From contig JAXHNL010000002.1 of assembly GCA_034520565.1 (NCBI GenBank), positions 1,536,001 through 1,600,000 on the forward strand: a stretch of 64,000 nt of DNA. Direction: 5' to 3'. Below are positions 7,211-15,356 of the stretch, piece after piece. Source of the stretch: Halodesulfurarchaeum sp. (lineage in GTDB: Archaea; Halobacteriota; Halobacteria; Halobacteriales; Halobacteriaceae). A program made the position numbers and the translations under genes. The notes under the pieces are model-generated. The model was given only the letters and a program-made list of their open reading frames with translations. It was not told where the DNA came from and searched no databases. Position 1 is the stretch's first letter. Every line of letters begins with the position of its first letter.

Positions 7211-7690
7211 GTGAAACGAATCGAGGTCTCCCGACAGGTGAATCGGTCACCTGCCGTCGTTTTTGCTGCAGTTCGGGATTTCAGCACATATCCGGCGTAT
7301 TCCGACTATTTGAAAGATGTCACACCGGACGGTGACGGAGCGCCCGGGACGGAGTACGATCTCGCGGTCCACGTTTTGGGCCTCTCGTTCGACGTCCGGA
7401 CTCGACTCGACCAGTTGGAGCCACCTCGACGGATCGAATGGTCGGTTCTCGGCGATGTCGAAGCCGTCGGCCGGTGGCTCGTCACGCCGGTCGGTGATGA
7501 AACCGCCTCGAAAATCGATCTCGTTCTCGAGTACGACCCGAATTCCATCGATTCGAGCGTCGTATCGCTCCCGCTCGGAATGACTTTTTCGTGGCTCACG
7601 GACAGGGCCGAGGCGCTTGCCGAGCGAGAAGCTGGAGCCGTTCTCGATCGGCTCGTGGCCGATATCGAACGGGAAGGGGTTCGAGATTAA
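7211..7690 (+). CDS. SRPBCC / polyketide cyclase-like protein
   Basis: GTG start at 7211; VFAAVRDFSTYPAYS...PPRRIEW pattern typical of haloarchaeal SRPBCC proteins. Confidence 0.75.
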   Translation: MKRIEVSRQVNRSPAVVFAAVRDFSTYPAYSDYLKDVTPDGDGAPGTEYDLAVHVLGLSFDVRTRLDQLEPPRRIEWSVLGDVEAVGRWLVTPVGDETASKIDLVLEYDPNSIDSSVVSLPLGMTFSWLTDRAEALAEREAGAVLDRLVADIEREGVRD

Positions 7691-8751
7691 CGATCGCGCT
7701 CGATGACGTAGTGGGTGAAATCGTCCAGCGAGGCTTTGACCTCGGGATCGAGGTCCAGGCCCTTGAGGTGTGATCTGGCATCCGCGGCCAGTTCCTCGGC
7801 CGTTTCGCGGGCGTGGTCGACACTGTTCGTCTCCTGGAGTAGTTCGAGAACCGCCATGATTTCGTCGTCCGTGACCGATTCGGCATCCAGCGTCGATTCG
7901 AGTCGCTCGCGGTCCCCCGGATCGGCGTTCCGGAGCGCGTGAATCACGAGCAGCGTTCGTTTTCCCTCCCGGATGTCGTTGCCGAAGGCCTTCCCGAACT
8001 CGCCGGCCTCGTCGAGCGAGTTTTTCACGTCGAGGATGTCGTCGCCGATCTGGAAGGCGATCGAGAGCGATTCGGCATAAGCCGCAAAGGCGTTTTCGAC
8101 GGTGTCGGGTTGGTCCGTGACGAGTGCGGCGAGTCGGCCGGCGATTCGCCCCAGGCAACCGGTCTTGCACGCGCTCATTTCGAGGTACTGCTCTTCACTG
8201 ATCCGGACGTTCGGCGTGTTGTGCCAGACGATGTCGGTTCCCTGTCCGAGATGTGTGCGGTTGAGTTCGAAGGTCAGCATCTCGTAGATCGCCAGCTGTT
8301 GGGTGGGTTCGAGTTCCGCCGGGTTCTGGGAGACGATCTTGAGGGGGACGAAGTAGAGGGCGTTACCCGCGTTTAGCGCGATGTCAGTCCCGTACCGAAG
8401 GTGGATAGCCTCCTCGCCGCGTCGGAGGGTGGCGTCGTCCTCGACGTCGTCGACGATGATGGTTCCCGTGTGGAGGATTTCCGGGATCGTCGCATAGGGA
8501 AGGTACTGCTCGGGATCCGCCCCGAGCGCGCGGACGAGTTCGAGAAAGAGCACCGGCCGCCACCGCTTTCCGCCTCGGTCGAGCAGGTCCCAGACCGGTT
8601 CGAAGAGGGCCTGCTCGATCGCGGTCGTGTCGTATTCGAACCGGGGCTCCCCGAACAACTCGGCCAGCTTCTCGTCGGTGATCGTCCGTGGCAGCAACGT
8701 GGCGATCTCTCGATCCACGTCCGTCCGCCACGCAGTCAACGCATCCCGCAT
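7687..8751 (-). CDS. trans-polyprenyl diphosphate synthase (possibly C25 or longer product)
   Basis: GGKRWRP, first Asp-rich motif DDVED, RRG, GQ, KTG, second Asp-rich motif FQIGDDILD, GNDIREGKRT. Confidence 0.92.
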   Translation of the reverse strand: MRDALTAWRTDVDREIATLLPRTITDEKLAELFGEPRFEYDTTAIEQALFEPVWDLLDRGGKRWRPVLFLELVRALGADPEQYLPYATIPEILHTGTIIVDDVEDDATLRRGEEAIHLRYGTDIALNAGNALYFVPLKIVSQNPAELEPTQQLAIYEMLTFELNRTHLGQGTDIVWHNTPNVRISEEQYLEMSACKTGCLGRIAGRLAALVTDQPDTVENAFAAYAESLSIAFQIGDDILDVKNSLDEAGEFGKAFGNDIREGKRTLLVIHALRNADPGDRERLESTLDAESVTDDEIMAVLELLQETNSVDHARETAEELAADARSHLKGLDLDPEVKASLDDFTHYVIERDR

Positions 8752-8863
8752 GTCACGGAAGTGGCCTGCAGTGACCAAAAAACTTGAGTTCCCCGTTTTC
8801 CGATGTCGACTCCGTTCCCGACCGTTTCACAATTCTTTTTTGATTGGGCCGGAACTCGGGTAT

Positions 8864-9159: not shown

Positions 9160-9900
9160 CTACCAAAAGACGCCGTTTGACTGCTCCAGCACGGCGAATT
9201 CGACTGGGGAGCCCCACGCGAGTCGCAGGGACGTATTCGCCGGGATCGTTTCGACCTCCCGATCGTCGACGACGAGCGCGATCGGGACGGTCTCACGGAC
9301 GACTTCGATTTCGATCGGTGGAGCGAGCACCCATCGCGGGTGAGCCGTTCGGAACTGACCGACCGGAACGACGCTCAGGCCGTCAACTGATGGATCGAGG
9401 ATCGGCCCGTCCACTGCAGTCCCGTAGCCGGGTGTACCGCCCGGTGCGGATATCACGACGCCGTCAGCACGCACGGTATCAACGACCGTTCCGTCGCCCT
9501 TAGTCGTCCGGAACTCGGATATCCGGGCCGGCTCGGCCGTCACGGCCATCACGTCCATGAGGGCACGGAACTCTTCTTCGCCCAACGAAACGTCGATGGT
9601 AGGGATTGCAACCGACTCGATCACGCCGTTCGTCAGCGATTCGAGGCTGGCTGCGAACGCTGTTTCGGGCACCGACGGCACGCCTGCACCGATCCCCACC
9701 GGGACAATTCCCGAGTTGATACCCGCCCGAAAGACGGAGAGTAGTGCGGTTTCTCCAACCGGCAGCACGTACTCGAGTTCGCTCTCCCGTTTCACAGCGT
9801 CTTCGGCAGATTTCAGATGGACGAGTTCGGGACCGTCGGCTGTCCGACTGAAGCGATCGTGACCGGTCCGGTTTTCCGGATCGAATAGCCCGACTTTCAT
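9160..9900 (-). CDS. ATP-NAD kinase-like protein (divergent haloarchaeal paralogue)
   Basis: VRADGVVISAPGGTPGY resembles the NAD kinase DG..TPxGSTAY motif; GGDG and NE motifs are degenerate. Confidence 0.7.
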   Translation of the reverse strand: MKVGLFDPENRTGHDRFSRTADGPELVHLKSAEDAVKRESELEYVLPVGETALLSVFRAGINSGIVPVGIGAGVPSVPETAFAASLESLTNGVIESVAIPTIDVSLGEEEFRALMDVMAVTAEPARISEFRTTKGDGTVVDTVRADGVVISAPGGTPGYGTAVDGPILDPSVDGLSVVPVGQFRTAHPRWVLAPPIEIEVVRETVPIALVVDDREVETIPANTSLRLAWGSPVEFAVLEQSNGVFW

Positions 9901-9979
9901 CAAACGCCCTCCCCGTTCATTGCTGGTGGTTTGATTCCGCCCGGCAAAAGGCTGCGGGGTGCTGTCACGTGTTGCACGA

Positions 9980-10640
9980 TCACTCGGCCTCCTCGCGTGG
10001 CGATGCCGGACAGATGTCTTCGAGGAACGCAGTCCGTACAGTCCGGCGAACGGGCCGTACAGACCGCCCGTCCGTGGGAGATCAGCCAATGGGTGAACAA
10101 CTTCCAGTCGGATTCCGGAACGAGCTCGAGGAGATCCTGCTCGATTTTTTCCGGGGTAGTCTCCTCGGTGAGCGCGAGGCGACGTGAGAGCCGCTGGACG
10201 TGGGTGTCGACGGCGATCCCCGAGGCGATGTCGTGCCCGTGTTGCAAGACGACGTTCGCCGTTTTTCGCCCCACTCCAGGCAAGGTCGTCAGCTCATCCA
10301 TCGTGTCCGGCACCCGTCCGTCGTAGTCCTCCAGGAGCCGGTCGCCGATACCGACGAGATACGACGCTTTGCTGTTGGGGTACGTGCAGGAACCGATGAC
10401 GTCCGCGACGGTTTCTTCCTGGGCGGTGGCGAAATCCTCGGGCGTTCGATACGCCTCGAACAGTGCGTCCGTGATTTCGTTCACCCGATCGTCGGTGCAC
10501 TGAGCCGAGAGCACCACCGCAATCAGTAGTTCGAATCGGTTCGAGAAATCCAGCGAAATGGTCGCGTCGGGATACGCCTCCCGCAGTCGCTCGATCACGA
10601 CGGCCGTCTGTTCGCGTCGATCGTCCAGCGGCGTGCCCAT
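9980..10640 (-). CDS. nth: Endonuclease III; apparent frameshift near 10025 inside the 4Fe-4S motif
   Basis: LLIAVVLSAQCTD, HhH motif LPGVGRKTANVVL, VDTHV; removing one base restores CTARSPDCTDCVLEDICP. Confidence 0.93.
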
Positions 10641-10763
10641 ACCGGGGCGTGGGCAGGGGGCAACTTGAGCCGTTCGACACGGGCCACCGCCGCGGATTGT
10701 TGGTTGGAGACCGTCTGCAGCCGGGTTGGGAATGCTTAATGGGTCGGCCGGAAAAGTCCCGCT

Positions 10764-12065
10764 ATGGGACTGCGAACCGTCTTGTCGGGGTCGGCGGTGA
10801 CGAGACTCACCGAACCGGTCGACCCCAGATTCGAACTGGCCGCACTCGCCGGGAAAGACGAGTCACGTCCACTCGTCTTTGAGTCAGTGGCTGGCTATCC
10901 GGACGTCAGTGCCGTGACGAACGTGGTCTCCTCACGGGACCGGATTGCCGAGTCGCTGGAAATCGACCCGGGTACCATCATCGGGGCGTTGACTCAGGCC
11001 ACGACGGATCCTCGCCCGCTTGCAGCACCCACGGCCCCCCGGTTCGAACACGTCGCCGATTCGCCGAACGTGGCGGAGTACGTTCCGATCCCGACCTATT
11101 ACGCCGAGCACGAGCGTCAGTACGTCGCTTCCGGTATCGTCATTGCCAGGGATCCGGACACGGACGTTCACAATCTCTCCTTCCATCGGCTGATGTACGA
11201 TGGCGGTTCCGAGTTCGTCATGCGGCTGGTCGAACGCCACCTCCACGACATCCGGGAGCGGACCGACGGCCCCCTCGATGTTGCCATCGTCGTCGGGGTT
11301 CATCCGGCCGTCGAGCTCGCTGCTGCGACGTCGGGCAGCCCCGACATGAGCGAGCTGGAGGTCGCCAATGCGCTTCTCGACGGCGACCTGAAAACGACGA
11401 CGGTGAATGGCATTACCGTCCCCGCCGAGGCCGAGTGGGTGATGACCGGACGGATTCTCGACGAAACCCGGGCCGAAGGGCCGTTCGTGGACCTTTCCGA
11501 GACCTGGGACACCATCCGCCAGCAACCGGTCGTGGAAATCTCGGCGCTGCACCTGCGACCGGATCCCATCATCAGGGTCGTCGTTCCGGGCAGGCGGGAG
11601 CACGCACACCTGATGGGTCTCCCGCAGGAACCGCGCATCCATCGAATCGTCCAGAACACCGTTCCGACCGTGCAGGAGGTCGTGCTCACGCCGGGTGGCT
11701 GTTCCTGGCTCCATGGGGTCGTCTCGATCGAGAAGCGGACCGAGGGCGACGCGAAGAACGCCGGCATGGCCGCACTTGCCGCTCACCCGTCGATGAAACG
11801 CGCTGTGGTCGTCGACCACGACATCAATCCCGCCGATCCGGATGCCGTCGAATGGGCGATTGCGACACGAGTACAACCGGACCGGGACATCACGACCATC
11901 GAAAACACGAAGGGATCCTCGCTCGATCCGTCACAGGACTTCGAGACGGGTACGCTCACCAAGTGGATCGTCGATGCCACGATTCCCGAGAACCGGGATC
12001 GGGCCGATTTCGCTGAAGCGACCGTCCCGGGGGTTGAAGACGTCTCGCTCGAAGCGTACCGATGA
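10764..12065 (+). CDS. UbiD-family prFMN decarboxylase, probable trans-anhydromevalonate 5-phosphate decarboxylase
   Basis: NLSFHR, EGPFVD, EHAHLMGLPQEPRI, VVVDHDI...VEWAIATR, GSSLDPS; clustered with aconitase X and UbiX. Confidence 0.85.
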   Translation: MGLRTVLSGSAVTRLTEPVDPRFELAALAGKDESRPLVFESVAGYPDVSAVTNVVSSRDRIAESLEIDPGTIIGALTQATTDPRPLAAPTAPRFEHVADSPNVAEYVPIPTYYAEHERQYVASGIVIARDPDTDVHNLSFHRLMYDGGSEFVMRLVERHLHDIRERTDGPLDVAIVVGVHPAVELAAATSGSPDMSELEVANALLDGDLKTTTVNGITVPAEAEWVMTGRILDETRAEGPFVDLSETWDTIRQQPVVEISALHLRPDPIIRVVVPGRREHAHLMGLPQEPRIHRIVQNTVPTVQEVVLTPGGCSWLHGVVSIEKRTEGDAKNAGMAALAAHPSMKRAVVVDHDINPADPDAVEWAIATRVQPDRDITTIENTKGSSLDPSQDFETGTLTKWIVDATIPENRDRADFAEATVPGVEDVSLEAYR

Positions 12066-12090
12066 TACCATATTACACTCCCCACTAACG

Positions 12091-13278
12091 ATGTCAATGG
12101 ATCTCACGACCGAGGAGGAAGCACTGCTCGAATCCGACGTTCCGGCGGTTCGAAAGTCGATGGAACTGCTCGTGCGGCTCGGTGATATCTACGGGGCCGA
12201 GGAGTTCGTCGAGATCGGTTCGGCCCAGGCCTCCGGGATCTCCTACAAGTCGATCGGCGACCCCGGCGTCGAATTTCTCGAAGGATTCGCCGAAGAAGGT
12301 GCAACGGTGCAGGTCCAGACCTTCGCAAACCCGGCCGGAATGGACATCGAGCGCTGGGAGGAGATGGGCGTCAGCGAGGAGTTTGCCACCCAACAGCGAC
12401 GGATCGTTGCCGCGCTGCGGGAGATGGGCGTGACCGTCTCGTTTACCTGCACCCCCTATCTCGCGGGGAACCTTCCCGGACCGAACGAACACATCGCGTG
12501 GGCCGAATCCTCCGCGGTTTCGTTTGCAAACAGCGTCATCGGCGCCAAAACGAACCGGGAAGGAGGTCCGTCAGCGCTCGCGGCGGCGATCACCGGGCGG
12601 ACGCCGAAACACGGGCTCCACCTCGATGAAAATCGGGAGCCGACCTACCTGATCGAGGTCGATGTTCCACTGGAGACGCAGGCGGACTTCGCCGCGCTTG
12701 GCTCCTGGACCGGACGAATCGTCGAAGACGGCAAGCCGTTCTTCGCCGGCGTAAACGGGGCGACGACGGACCAGTTGAAGTCCCTCGGCGCTGCAATGGC
12801 CGCGACTGGCGCGGTCGCCCTGCACTTCGTGGGCGGCGTGACGACTGAAAAAGCCCCGCCCGAGGACGTCGAAACCCTCCAGTTCGGGGCGGCGGAGCTC
12901 GAAGGGGAGTACGGTGACCTCTCGGCTACCGAGGACACCGACCTCATCGTGTTTGGCTGTCCCCACGCCTCGGTCGACGAGATCGGGACGGTCGCGGATC
13001 GACTCGACGGCGAATCCCTCGACCGGGACCTCTGGGTCTGCACCAGCCGCTCGGTGAAATCCCAGGCCGATCGGATGGGCTACACCGAATCGATCGAAGA
13101 CGCGGGCGGAATGGTCCTCAGTGACACCTGTAACGTCGTCGCACCGATCGAGGAGTTAGGGTACGAGTCCTCTGCGACAGATTCGGCGAAAGCCGCGAGT
13201 TATCTCCCCGGATTCGGGAACCAGACGGTGCGCTTTGACGACAAGCTCTCGCTGCTCGAGGAGGCGATCGAGGAATGA
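12091..13278 (+). CDS. Aconitase X large (catalytic) subunit, probable phosphomevalonate dehydratase large subunit
   Basis: SGISYKSIGDPG, TCTPY, WAESSAV, NREGGPSALAAA, GCPH, DTCNVVAP, TDSAKAASY; Fe-S-ligating Cys residues present. Confidence 0.88.
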   Translation: MSMDLTTEEEALLESDVPAVRKSMELLVRLGDIYGAEEFVEIGSAQASGISYKSIGDPGVEFLEGFAEEGATVQVQTFANPAGMDIERWEEMGVSEEFATQQRRIVAALREMGVTVSFTCTPYLAGNLPGPNEHIAWAESSAVSFANSVIGAKTNREGGPSALAAAITGRTPKHGLHLDENREPTYLIEVDVPLETQADFAALGSWTGRIVEDGKPFFAGVNGATTDQLKSLGAAMAATGAVALHFVGGVTTEKAPPEDVETLQFGAAELEGEYGDLSATEDTDLIVFGCPHASVDEIGTVADRLDGESLDRDLWVCTSRSVKSQADRMGYTESIEDAGGMVLSDTCNVVAPIEELGYESSATDSAKAASYLPGFGNQTVRFDDKLSLLEEAIEE

Positions 13279-13704
13279 GTTCGGATACCGACGCCGGGAC
13301 GACCGCCGAGGGACGAACCATTGCAGAGGGCGTCGGCGAGGGGGAGGTACTCGTCTCTCCAGAGCCGATCAGTTTCTACGGGGCAGTGGACACGAAGACC
13401 GGCGAGTTCATCGAGGAAGACCACCATCTGACCGGGAAGAACATCGCCGGCAAGGTGCTCGTCTTCCCGAAGGGGAAGGGCTCGACTGTCGGCTCGTACG
13501 TCATTTACGGGCTCGGCACAGGAGGGCACTGCCCCGGCAGCGATAGTCAATCACGAAACCGAGACGATCGTGGCCACGGGGGCGATCCTCGGCGAGGTAC
13601 CGTGTCTCGACGGTATCGAGGATGCGGTCTCTCGGTTCTCGGACGGGGATCGCGTCCGGGTGGACGCGAGCGAAGGGACGATAACCAGACTCGACAATGA
13701 GTGA
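13275..13704 (+). CDS. Aconitase X small (swivel, DUF126) subunit; apparent 1-nt frameshift near 13515
   Basis: ISFYGAVD...GKVLVFPKGKGSTVGSYVIY; the shifted frame continues APAAIVNHETETIVATGAILGEVP...DGDRVRVDASEGTI to a stop at 13702-13704. Confidence 0.88.
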
Positions 13705-14296
13705 GTCACCCCCCGAACGCGAACGTCTCGTTGTCGGCCTCTCGGGAGCCTCGGGGATCCCGCTCGGTGTCGAAACGATTCGGGCCCTGAGCGACCACTT
13801 CGCCGTGCACACGGTCGTCACGGACGGCGCACGAGCGGTTATGGAACACGAGACCGATTCGGAAGCGGCGACGATGGAAACCATCGAGGCGGCCTCGGAA
13901 CGCGTCTACGACGGCTCGGAACTGGCAGCGCCGATATCATCGGGGACAGTAGACACAGCGGGGATGGTGGTCGTCCCGGCATCCATGAAATCCGTCGCGG
14001 CGATCGCCAACGGCTACGCCGAAAACCTGCTCGTGCGGGCGGCTGACGTCACGCTCAAGGAGGATCGGCAACTGGTGGTGGTTCCCCGCGAATCCCCGCT
14101 CAACGAGGCCCATCTCGAAAACCTGCTCGCGCTCCGGAAGCGGGGAGTGGCCGTCGTTCCGCCGGTACTCGGCTTTTACTACGACCCGGCGGGAATCGAC
14201 GACGTCATCGACCGGATCGTTGGGACGGTCCTGGATCGTTTCGACGTGAATCACGATCGGTACGTGGCGTGGAATCCGGACGAGACGTCCGAGTAA
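13697..14296 (+). CDS. ubiX: Flavin prenyltransferase UbiX
   Basis: VVGLSGASG, AAPISSG, PASMKSVAAIANG, RAADVTLKE, VPRESP, PPVLGFY. Confidence 0.93.
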   Translation: MSESPPERERLVVGLSGASGIPLGVETIRALSDHFAVHTVVTDGARAVMEHETDSEAATMETIEAASERVYDGSELAAPISSGTVDTAGMVVVPASMKSVAAIANGYAENLLVRAADVTLKEDRQLVVVPRESPLNEAHLENLLALRKRGVAVVPPVLGFYYDPAGIDDVIDRIVGTVLDRFDVNHDRYVAWNPDETSE

Positions 14297-14375
14297 TCGT
14301 TCTCCGGTCCCTTCGAAACGAGCAGCGGTTCAGGCATGCGTGATGTTTATGCGCCGTCCGCACCCCTCACCGAGC

Positions 14376-15356
14376 ATGAAGGCCACCGCCCGGGCACATC
14401 CCATTCAGGGGCTCGTCAAGTATCACGGGCTCCGGGATATGGCGCTTCGGTACCCGTATCACGACAGCATCAGCGTGGCAACTGCACCAGCCGAGACCGT
14501 TACCACCGTTTCGTTCGACACCGATCTCGACGCCTCGCGGTACGTCGTCGACGGCGAGGAACTCACGGGAGACGGCGCGTCCCGGGTAACGCGAGTCATC
14601 GACCGTGTTCGGGAGATTGCCGAGGACCCGGCTCTGGACGGACCGGTAAAACTGGTCAGTCAAAACACGATGCCGACGAACGTGGGTTTGGGCTCCTCGT
14701 CCTCGGGCTTTGCTGCGGCCGCGATGGCCGCCGTCGAAGCCGCCGGACTCGATCTCTCGCTGCCCGAAATCTCGACGATCGCCCGGTTGGGATCGGCTTC
14801 GGCTGCCCGTTCGGTGACCGGTGGCTTTTCGGACCTCCGGGCCGGAACGACGGACGAAGATTGCCGTTCGGAGCGCATTCGGTCGCCACTCGAGGACGAT
14901 CTCGAAATCGTGGTCGGAATCGTTTCGGCCTACAAGGAGACGGGATGGGCCCACGAGGAGGCGACCGAAAGCCACCTCTGGCAGTCCCGACTGGCTCACG
15001 TCCACGACCAGTTGGCCGCGATGCGGCAGGCACTCCGGGAGGGCGATTTCGGGACGGCTTTCGAGGTCGCAGAACACGACACGTTGAGTCTCGCCGCGAC
15101 GACGATGACCGGGCCCGAGGCGTGGATCTACTGGAAGCCGCGAACGCTGGAGATCTTCGAGCGCGTTCGAACCCTTCGCGAGGACGGGATTCTGGCGTAC
15201 TTCTCGACTGATACGGGGGCGACCGTGTACGTGAACACGACGAGCGAGTACGTCGATCGGGTCGAACAAGCGGTCGCGGAGGTTGGCGTCGAAACCCGCA
15301 CCTGGGCGGTTGGTGGCCCGGCGACGGTGCTTCCCAACTCGGAAGCACTCTTCTGA
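14376..15356 (+). CDS. mvaD: Haloarchaeal phosphomevalonate decarboxylase (GHMP family)
   Basis: MKATARAHPIQGLVKYHG..D...PYHDSIS, PTNVGLGSSSSGFAA, YFSTDTGATVYVN, matching the Haloferax-type enzyme. Confidence 0.93.
   Translation: MKATARAHPIQGLVKYHGLRDMALRYPYHDSISVATAPAETVTTVSFDTDLDASRYVVDGEELTGDGASRVTRVIDRVREIAEDPALDGPVKLVSQNTMPTNVGLGSSSSGFAAAAMAAVEAAGLDLSLPEISTIARLGSASAARSVTGGFSDLRAGTTDEDCRSERIRSPLEDDLEIVVGIVSAYKETGWAHEEATESHLWQSRLAHVHDQLAAMRQALREGDFGTAFEVAEHDTLSLAATTMTGPEAWIYWKPRTLEIFERVRTLREDGILAYFSTDTGATVYVNTTSEYVDRVEQAVAEVGVETRTWAVGGPATVLPNSEALF

Follow-up and report, generated by a model that had tools for sequence, protein, structure and literature searches.

Genes for two alternative lower mevalonate routes at one locus in a Halodesulfurarchaeum genome

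Why should a haloarchaeon carry, side by side, the genes of two different routes for one and the same conversion of the mevalonate pathway? The question is raised by a stretch of 64,000 nucleotides from an assembly of Halodesulfurarchaeum sp. (GCA_034520565.1, contig JAXHNL010000002.1, positions 1,536,001 to 1,600,000 of the forward strand), which we call the window and whose own numbering is used throughout. Between positions 10764 and 15356 the window holds a ubiD-like gene, acnX large, acnX small, ubiX and mvaD, all co-oriented, and open reading frame (ORF) lists and family scans agree on these five genes with an original prediction made from the letters of the window. The first four (the cassette) correspond to the archaeal dehydratase/decarboxylase route, the fifth to the decarboxylase of haloarchaea. 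We consider it probable, taking all parts together, that both routes work, that the cassette was acquired horizontally and saves ATP, and that the frameshift found in acnX small is an error of the assembly.

In the first route, an Fe-S dehydratase of the AcnX family would make trans-anhydromevalonate phosphate from mevalonate 5-phosphate, and a UbiD-type decarboxylase dependent on prenylated flavin mononucleotide (prFMN), the cofactor coming from UbiX, would then yield isopentenyl phosphate without ATP. In the second route, the mvaD product would perform the same conversion in a single ATP-dependent step. Both would share mevalonate kinase, which supplies the substrate, and isopentenyl phosphate kinase, which takes the product. 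The two kinases, required by either route, are predicted to be encoded elsewhere in the genome: the mevalonate kinase gene (mvk) lies on the same contig (TIGR00549, 274.6 bits against a cut-off of 163) and the isopentenyl phosphate kinase gene (ipk) adjoins it (NF040647, 172 bits against 120). The features of the cassette and of mvaD are as follows.

10735 to 10740, plus strand: TATA-like box CTTAAT at -29 to -24 of the ubiD ATG, putative leaderless promoter of ubiD-acnX-ubiX.
10764 to 12065, plus strand: ubiD-like gene (433 aa), a candidate prFMN-dependent anhydromevalonate phosphate decarboxylase (AMPD).
12091 to 13278, plus strand: acnX large (PF04412, 473.9 bits), candidate large subunit of phosphomevalonate dehydratase (PMDh).
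13275 to 13704, plus strand: acnX small (swivel) subunit (PF01989), interrupted in the assembly by an extra G at 13514/13515.
13697 to 14296, plus strand: ubiX, predicted flavin prenyltransferase making prFMN for the UbiD enzyme, last gene of the cassette.
14346 to 14351, plus strand: TATA-like box TTTATG at -30 to -25 of the mvaD ATG, putative separate promoter of mvaD.
14376 to 15356, plus strand: mvaD, ATP-dependent phosphomevalonate decarboxylase (PMD) of the haloarchaeal type (NF040704 equivalog).

The ubiD-like product displays the three-domain architecture of its family, with matches to UbiD_N (PF20695), UbiD (PF01977) and UbiD_C (PF20696), and reaches 315.7 bits with TIGR00148 (cut-off 244.85). 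The large and small AcnX subunits are separate, in tandem, as in PMDh (PF04412 and PF01989); the ORF of the large subunit is open from 11842, and its true start is the ATG at 12091 or at 12097. The ubiX gene, whose start overlaps the end of acnX small, exceeds the cut-offs of TIGR00421 (194.6 bits against 108.9) and NF004685 (196.9 against 188). Its stop codon TAA occupies 14294-14296 and the mvaD ATG begins at 14376, which leaves the 79 nt of spacing stated in the original prediction. The mvaD product matches NF040704 with 543.4 bits (cut-off 475) over profile positions 1-323 of 323, and the gene is intact, as was likewise claimed.

The assignment of the cassette to the mevalonate pathway, also part of the original prediction, holds on account of the nearest solved structure, the cysteine pattern, the linkage of ubiD to acnX and the names of relatives in UniRef. 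The best solved structure for the large AcnX subunit is that of Thermococcus kodakarensis (7cnr_A, 339.1 bits, residues 3-391 of 394), while the cis-3-hydroxy-L-proline dehydratases 7cnp, 7cnq and 7d2r reach 189-194 bits. In the alignment to 7cnr_A three Cys are kept, in the motifs TCTPY, GCPHAS and DTC; the last reads DTCNV, with N where the CxC enzyme has its second Cys, which is the PMDh pattern lacking the site-C Cys. PMC10040528 describes PMDh homologues as holding the cluster by three Cys (C122, C297 and C356 in ApPMDh), the site-C Cys of type I being absent. It also reports mevalonate 5-phosphate in the 7cns structure, and gives the activity of the crystallised putative PMDh of T. kodakarensis (7cnr/7cns) as not demonstrated.

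Of 80 related loci, 45 have the same order ubiD-acnXL-acnXS, often with ubiX nearby, and these span Aenigmatarchaeota, Micrarchaeota, Nitrososphaeria, Bathyarchaeia, Asgard archaea and some Myxococcota. The UbiD protein of the window clusters with the UbiD genes linked to acnX in these 45 loci, in trees that omit the characterised Aeropyrum and Methanosarcina proteins. Relatives at 65-81% identity are labelled "Anhydromevalonate phosphate decarboxylase" in UniRef, and those at 81-91% bear the name Halodesulfurarchaeum. The genome has a single UbiD-family gene and a single AcnX gene.

It is conceivable that the cassette acts on some other substrate, a hydroxy-acid or a heteroaromatic acid, and came to lie beside mvaD by chance. 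Some relatives bear the Joint Genome Institute (JGI) label "2,5-furandicarboxylate decarboxylase", an enzyme of this type is the best solved UbiD match, and the nearest AcnX model of NCBIfam, NF051439, describes a hydroxyproline dehydratase, although the large subunit (245.9 bits) falls far below its cut-off of 700. We regard this explanation as highly improbable, as the large subunit is far nearer to the T. kodakarensis protein, whose structure holds mevalonate 5-phosphate, and displays the PMDh cysteine pattern. Moreover, the same gene order occurs in archaea without any other lower mevalonate route, and the juxtaposition of mvaD and cassette takes two forms, a tandem one in family f1 and a divergent one in a Halobacteriales metagenome-assembled genome (MAG; locus L036). 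We assign the four genes to the archaeal type of lower mevalonate module, and not to the hydroxyproline or aromatic-acid systems that the original prediction had considered as a contrary outcome.

The cassette shares with the archaeal pathway of the Aeropyrum/Methanosarcina type its four protein families, a two-subunit AcnX (type IIb) with the PMDh cysteine pattern, and the ubiD-acnX order found in many archaeal phyla. It differs in its occurrence in Halobacteria, in its coexistence with PMD, in strongly acidic proteins and in sequences that cluster with those of hypersaline DPANN archaea; in PMC10040528, Halobacteria are listed as an exception to this pathway. With the haloarchaeal pathway of Haloferax volcanii (PMD followed by isopentenyl phosphate kinase) the genome has in common the NF040704 match, which the H. 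volcanii control genome also gives, as well as mvk and ipk; unlike there, the mvaD of the window is preceded by a full alternative to its own reaction, while in family-mates without the cassette mvaD lies beside the endonuclease III gene (endoIII). The putative PMDh of T. kodakarensis (7cnr/7cns) is the best solved match of the large subunit, with all three cluster-binding Cys aligned, and differs in that the small subunit of the window is frameshifted. Type I AcnX, the fused hydroxyproline dehydratase, has the same superfamily fold and swivel domain, but is a single chain of 579 aa with CxC ligands, in contrast to the two subunits and DTCN of the window. Lastly, the HmfF-like UbiD decarboxylase (6h6v/6h6x), the best solved match of the UbiD-like protein, stands apart from the window gene, which is tied to acnX and ubiX and not to genes of furan metabolism.

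The distribution of the cassette was surveyed in 401 species-level genomes of Halobacteria, a survey that the original prediction had proposed. AcnX-large gave 19 matches, of which 18 are orthologues at 68-100% identity, including the genome of the window itself, and one is a distant paralogue at 38%; the cassette is thus present in 18 of the 401 genomes. Carriers comprise all sampled members of the genera g1 (3/3), g5 (1/1) and g30 (7/7), together with four members of g41 and one each of g10 and g90, and the order ubiD-acnXL-acnXS-ubiX is kept in all 17 other carrier loci. Carriers with a genus name belong to Halodesulfurarchaeum, Halanaeroarchaeum, Halapricum, Halorhabdus, Halalkaliarchaeum and Halococcoides. 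By contrast with this patchiness, mvaD is found in 401 of 401 genomes (398 over the cut-off), in line with the expectation that haloarchaea generally use MvaD; therefore every carrier of the cassette has both routes, and for the genome of the window the gene identities agree with the earlier claim of both routes at one locus. The view that the module is confined to lineages which include anaerobic or microaerophilic haloarchaea is supported: three of the four species listed as microaerophilic or strictly anaerobic in PMC10999741 fall in carrier genera, the fourth being Natranaeroarchaeum.

The best MvaD E-values of the carriers (about 1e-157 to 1e-180) are among the weaker ones of the class, in which most fall between 1e-176 and 1e-192; this may only reflect their phylogenetic position. 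The distant paralogue (locus L019, genome G333 of family f5, positions 1043-2733) is an AcnX pair with a large subunit 32-38% identical and no adjacent UbiD or UbiX gene; it is probably a different AcnX type and served as an outgroup.

The surroundings of the cassette suggest where it would have been inserted. Upstream of it lie three genes on the minus strand, endoIII, a NAD-kinase-like gene and a polyprenyl synthase gene, of which the first and the last are placed as follows.

9900 to 10640, minus strand: endonuclease III gene (TIGR01083, 242.2 bits against a cut-off of 211.7), left border of the cassette.
7687 to 8778, minus strand: polyprenyl (IdsA/GGPP-like) synthase gene, 2 kb upstream of the cassette.

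Downstream follow a radical-SAM gene, a ribulose-1-phosphate aldolase gene and an MtnA-like gene. In family-mates without the cassette (L139 and L140), endoIII on the minus strand and mvaD on the plus strand are direct divergent neighbours, 106 and 209 nt apart, and in the genome of the window as well as in G010 and G113 the four-gene module sits exactly between these two genes. The block of polyprenyl synthase, NAD-kinase-like gene and endoIII, followed by mvaD, is conserved in the family whether or not the cassette is present. The other carrier family has its cassette elsewhere, and the divergent arrangement of mvaD and ubiD in L036 represents a second kind of juxtaposition. The cassette would thus have reached a few haloarchaeal lineages horizontally and, in the family of Halodesulfurarchaeum and Halanaeroarchaeum, would have landed between endoIII and mvaD.

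Both halves of the locus appear to be maintained. The TATA-like boxes proposed in the original prediction are present at 10735-10740 and 14346-14351, and they are conserved among related loci: a box of the form (C/G)TTA(A/G/T)(T/A) precedes the ubiD ATG by 24-29 nt in 10 of 10 loci, and TTTAT(G/C/A) precedes the mvaD ATG by 25-30 nt in 11 of 11, the remainder of both spacers being variable. As putative promoters, the boxes fit two leaderless transcripts. The ratio of nonsynonymous to synonymous substitution rates (dN/dS) between the window and the nearest MAG (L028) is 0.075 for UbiD, 0.046 for AcnX-large, 0.059 for UbiX and 0.093 for MvaD, at dS of 0.63-0.77; with values of 0.046-0.093, both routes are therefore under purifying selection within the genus.

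Does the cassette descend from the common ancestor of the phylum, or was it gained later? AcnX-large is present in 125 of 132 genomes of the same phylum outside Halobacteria, at no more than 49% identity to the protein of the window, whereas the copies in MAGs of Aenigmatarchaeota, Micrarchaeota and Iainarchaeum reach 63-68%; three of the five near DPANN MAGs derive from hypersaline soda-lake sediment. UbiD and AcnX phylogenies, which the original prediction had suggested with characterised enzymes included, were built from homologues, leaving out L029 and L062 (short high-scoring segment pairs, HSPs) from the AcnX set and 15 rows (HSPs short or with stops) from the UbiD set; the UbiD tree was further thinned by 8 Methanobacteria rows. 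Among the 88 rows of the AcnX-large tree, the 26 from haloarchaea fall into one clade (support of 100 in the SH-like approximate likelihood ratio test, SH-aLRT), which is joined to five DPANN rows (SH-aLRT 100), and the 26 from the same phylum make up a clade of their own (SH-aLRT 99). Haloarchaea and DPANN group alike in the UbiD tree of 96 rows (support 98 and 100), with 20 same-phylum rows on the far side together with Methanobacteria and Methanococci. A more careful tree of 37 rows recovers the haloarchaea-plus-DPANN clade with 99/100, so that the haloarchaeal copies group with those of hypersaline DPANN and not with those of their own phylum.

Approximately unbiased (AU) tests were run on subsets of 37 and 34 rows of the AcnX set. 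A single clade of haloarchaeal and same-phylum copies is rejected (p 3.5e-13), and it is still rejected if the five near DPANN may belong to it (p 3.7e-4), also after removal of the bacterial rows and the long outgroup from that same test (p 3.3e-3), although these values are weakened by the fact that the groups were named after the first tree had been seen. Attraction of the sequences by their acidic composition was considered as a cause of the grouping and rejected, as the near DPANN copies are no more acidic than the same-phylum ones: net acidic residues in AcnX-large amount to 6.2% in the near DPANN, 5.0% in the same phylum and 11.7% in haloarchaea.

We also have to consider that the cassette may be a vertical relic, namely the ancestral archaeal pathway, kept in a few haloarchaeal lineages after the arrival of PMD and lost elsewhere, which supposes in addition that the near DPANN took their copies from haloarchaeal hosts. 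DPANN archaea often acquire genes of their hosts; the haloarchaeal copies form one clade whose two main branches roughly follow families (f1 against f4 plus f2), and elsewhere in the phylum hardly any genome lacks the archaeal module, which is present in the 125 of 132 counted above. Nevertheless, the AU tests reject a clade of this kind even with the five near DPANN inside, and the identities of up to 49% to same-phylum copies against 63-68% to DPANN copies run counter to it. A relic would demand loss in about 95% of the sampled species across all families, and the haloarchaea-plus-DPANN clade is itself nested among other DPANN (SH-aLRT 98 in the quick AcnX tree of 88 rows). We therefore judge a vertical relic to be quite unlikely. 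The suggestion that the locus represents an intermediate stage of pathway replacement, which amounts to such a relic, is accordingly not supported, as both trees place the haloarchaeal copies away from the same-phylum ones and the AU tests reject the vertical groupings, and acquisition for the saving of energy is the better reading. On that reading the cassette would not be a leftover of the ancestral pathway, but would have a recent common origin with the cassettes of DPANN archaea of hypersaline sediments.

Some loci outside Halobacteria deserve mention in their own right. In four loci from Aenigmatarchaeota MAGs (L037-L039 and L044) the gap between ubiD and acnXL measures about 570-640 nt, compared with 10-30 nt in haloarchaea. 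Eight loci from Myxococcota or "Deltaproteobacteria" MAGs (L045, L051, L056, L061, L064, L065, L072 and L095) have the order ubiD-acnXL-acnXS at 42-56% identity, often with ubiX about 0.8 kb further on, and constitute their own clade in both trees; they look like an archaeal-type lower mevalonate module in bacteria. A Promethearchaeota MAG (L077, 417-6267) has ubiD-acnXL-acnXS followed about 2.3 kb on by an MvaD-like GHMP gene of 30% identity, and may represent a further lineage in which genes of both lower pathways share a locus.

Is the cassette of this genome functional, given that its swivel subunit is interrupted? The profile PF01989 is split over two frames, with profile positions 1-47 in the frame of 13275 and 51-79 in that of 13276; the gene follows the first of these frames as far as about 13511 and the second from 13516 onwards. 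Aligned to the DNA of four relatives, it shows a single extra G at 13514/13515 (CTCGGCA against CTC-GCx), which confirms the position 13515 of the original prediction exactly, and an intact small subunit, as expected of a PMDh, is accordingly not found in this assembly. In the other haloarchaea the two halves share one frame in 17 of 17 genome loci, and acnX small is intact in all eight MAG loci that reach the gene. Programmed frameshifting was considered and rejected: the site is not conserved and is present in no relative.

The assembly, itself a MAG, comprises 1.86 Mb in two contigs, with a completeness of 80.7%. A survey of frame breaks started from 120 kb of a genome of the same genus, where 63 of the 96 ORFs with 150 aa or more matched the genome of the window at 60% identity or more; ten frame changes were spread over 8 of these 63 ORFs, a figure that includes some ambiguous cases, as the reverse control has a background of its own (61 ORFs of the relative yielded 4 junctions, two of which mirror breaks at these same places). 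Judged from such single-base breaks relative to the same-genus genome, the assembly looks rich in indels. Four genes of the window with apparent breaks were checked against Pfam after the reverse control, and three of them clearly split a domain or a standard architecture.

About 17650: break in the MtnA-like gene, within a C run; the IF-2B profile matches with positions 2-61 in one frame and with 76-280 in a second.
About 21305: break in the LUD/4Fe-4S gene, split across frames.
About 32127 and 32985: two breaks in the Drg-like GTPase gene; at about 32127 the extension domain is lost at position 78 of 106, with TGS continuing in another frame.
About 43157: break in the gene of a bPH_2 protein, ambiguous by Pfam.

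Because of these domain-splitting breaks elsewhere and the low completeness of the two-contig assembly, the extra G at 13515 is most likely an assembly indel. In the public run that covers most of the stretch (a share of 0.91 of it), contigs cover 12800-13474 and 13532-14300 and none bridges 13475-13531; in a second run, a contig of a related organism crosses the site in an intact frame, matching the genomes of relatives.

Alternatively, the frameshift is real and the cassette is decaying, so that the dehydratase lacks a working swivel subunit and MvaD alone operates in this population. The extra G is, after all, present in the assembly, the contigs of the best run end on either side of the site, which could reflect heterogeneity there, and mvaD alone suffices in 383 of the 401 sampled Halobacteria. 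We consider decay unlikely: acnX small is intact in every relative examined, the flanking genes of the cassette show dN/dS of 0.05-0.08 along the branch to the nearest MAG, Pfam domains are split by several other single-base breaks of the assembly, of which one lies in a C run, and the out-of-frame tail of the gene carries no further damage.

The reading of two working routes with a horizontally acquired, ATP-saving cassette has several points to reckon with, which weigh against it in addition to the late naming of the AU-test groups and the ambiguous cases in the frame-break figure. The identification of the UbiD-like protein as AMPD draws on synteny and context together with automatic UniRef names and is thus provisional. 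Its best solved structure, 6h6x (273.6 bits, residues 12-432), resembles a furandicarboxylate decarboxylase; the copy of the Protein Data Bank (PDB) and the model libraries searched contain no AMPD structure or curated AMPD model. The trees, moreover, contain none of the characterised AMPD or PMDh sequences of Aeropyrum or Methanosarcina. The direction of transfer is weakly resolved in these phylogenies: the wider nesting among other DPANN, with SH-aLRT 98 in the 88-row AcnX tree and 86/86 in the careful tree, is not resolved in the UbiD tree. At least one genome of g41 (G198) gave no AcnX match, and Halococcoides is aerobic, yet carries the module. The contigs of the runs, finally, neither confirm nor refute the frameshift at 13515.

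What, then, would keep a second route in organisms that already possess a complete one? The dehydratase route is described as cheaper in ATP and typical of anaerobes in the literature. The cassette appears to be kept by selection in haloarchaea of anaerobic or low-oxygen habits, most likely by saving one ATP per isoprene unit, a saving that would count in energy-poor sulfur respiration. We favour the saving of energy because, among haloarchaea, the cassette is carried by the sulfur respirers and fermenters, whose energy supply is limited.

The role of oxygen provides a different answer, in which the Fe-S/prFMN route serves anoxic growth and MvaD serves exposure to oxygen, the two being switched by their two promoters. 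Separate conserved boxes do precede ubiD and mvaD, and the carriers include Halapricum, Halalkaliarchaeum and Halorhabdus, which are regarded as facultative anaerobes. Aeropyrum pernix, the organism in which the dehydratase route was discovered, is nevertheless an aerobe. We find the explanation by oxygen possible but doubtful, and the weaker one, because a genus described as strictly anaerobic keeps mvaD, PMD is reported as the sole route in some strict anaerobes, and Aeropyrum is aerobic. The Aeropyrum PMDh does lose its cluster on oxidation in air, according to PMC10040528. Set against this, Halodesulfurarchaeum is listed among strictly anaerobic or microaerophilic species in PMC10999741, and the genus itself and Halanaeroarchaeum are described as strictly anaerobic, with mvaD under purifying selection all the same; PMD as the sole route of some strict anaerobes is reported in PMC11052028. 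Of the rationale given in the original prediction, the saving of ATP is hence favoured, while an O2-tolerant route for exposure to air appears weak, as strict anaerobes keep mvaD.

A fuller scenario, which we find plausible though not quite probable, is that anaerobic or low-oxygen haloarchaea re-acquired the cassette in hypersaline anoxic sediments, from or together with DPANN, long after the switch to PMD, and that in one family it became wired upstream of mvaD with a promoter of its own, giving two interchangeable routes chosen by the state of energy or redox.

Reviews and primary papers treat Halobacteria as the exception without a dehydratase/decarboxylase route and PMD as its evolutionary replacement. 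Literature searches yielded no published description of both routes co-occurring in haloarchaea, the figures and supplements of PMC11052028 being outside what was seen, and the words "coexist" and "co-occur" are absent from the text of that paper. The arrangement is not quite so new as the original prediction assumed, since haloarchaeal UbiD is already labelled automatically as AMPD in UniRef. For metabolic engineers, who already try to use such enzymes (PMC13198327, PMC12547664), the locus offers salt-adapted, co-located, ATP-saving candidates.

The picture of lower mevalonate metabolism in Halobacteria changes in three respects: about 4-5% of the sampled haloarchaeal species carry both routes, anaerobic lineages are among these carriers, and acquisition of the cassette looks likelier than its retention. 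The roles of oxygen and energy in driving the switch, and the question whether replacement goes in one direction only, thus become testable in cultivable organisms. If re-acquisition is true, ecology would drive "replacement" in the mevalonate pathway and could also reverse it, and facultative carriers that can be cultivated, Halorhabdus and Halapricum among them, would constitute a natural test of why PMD displaced the Fe-S/prFMN route.

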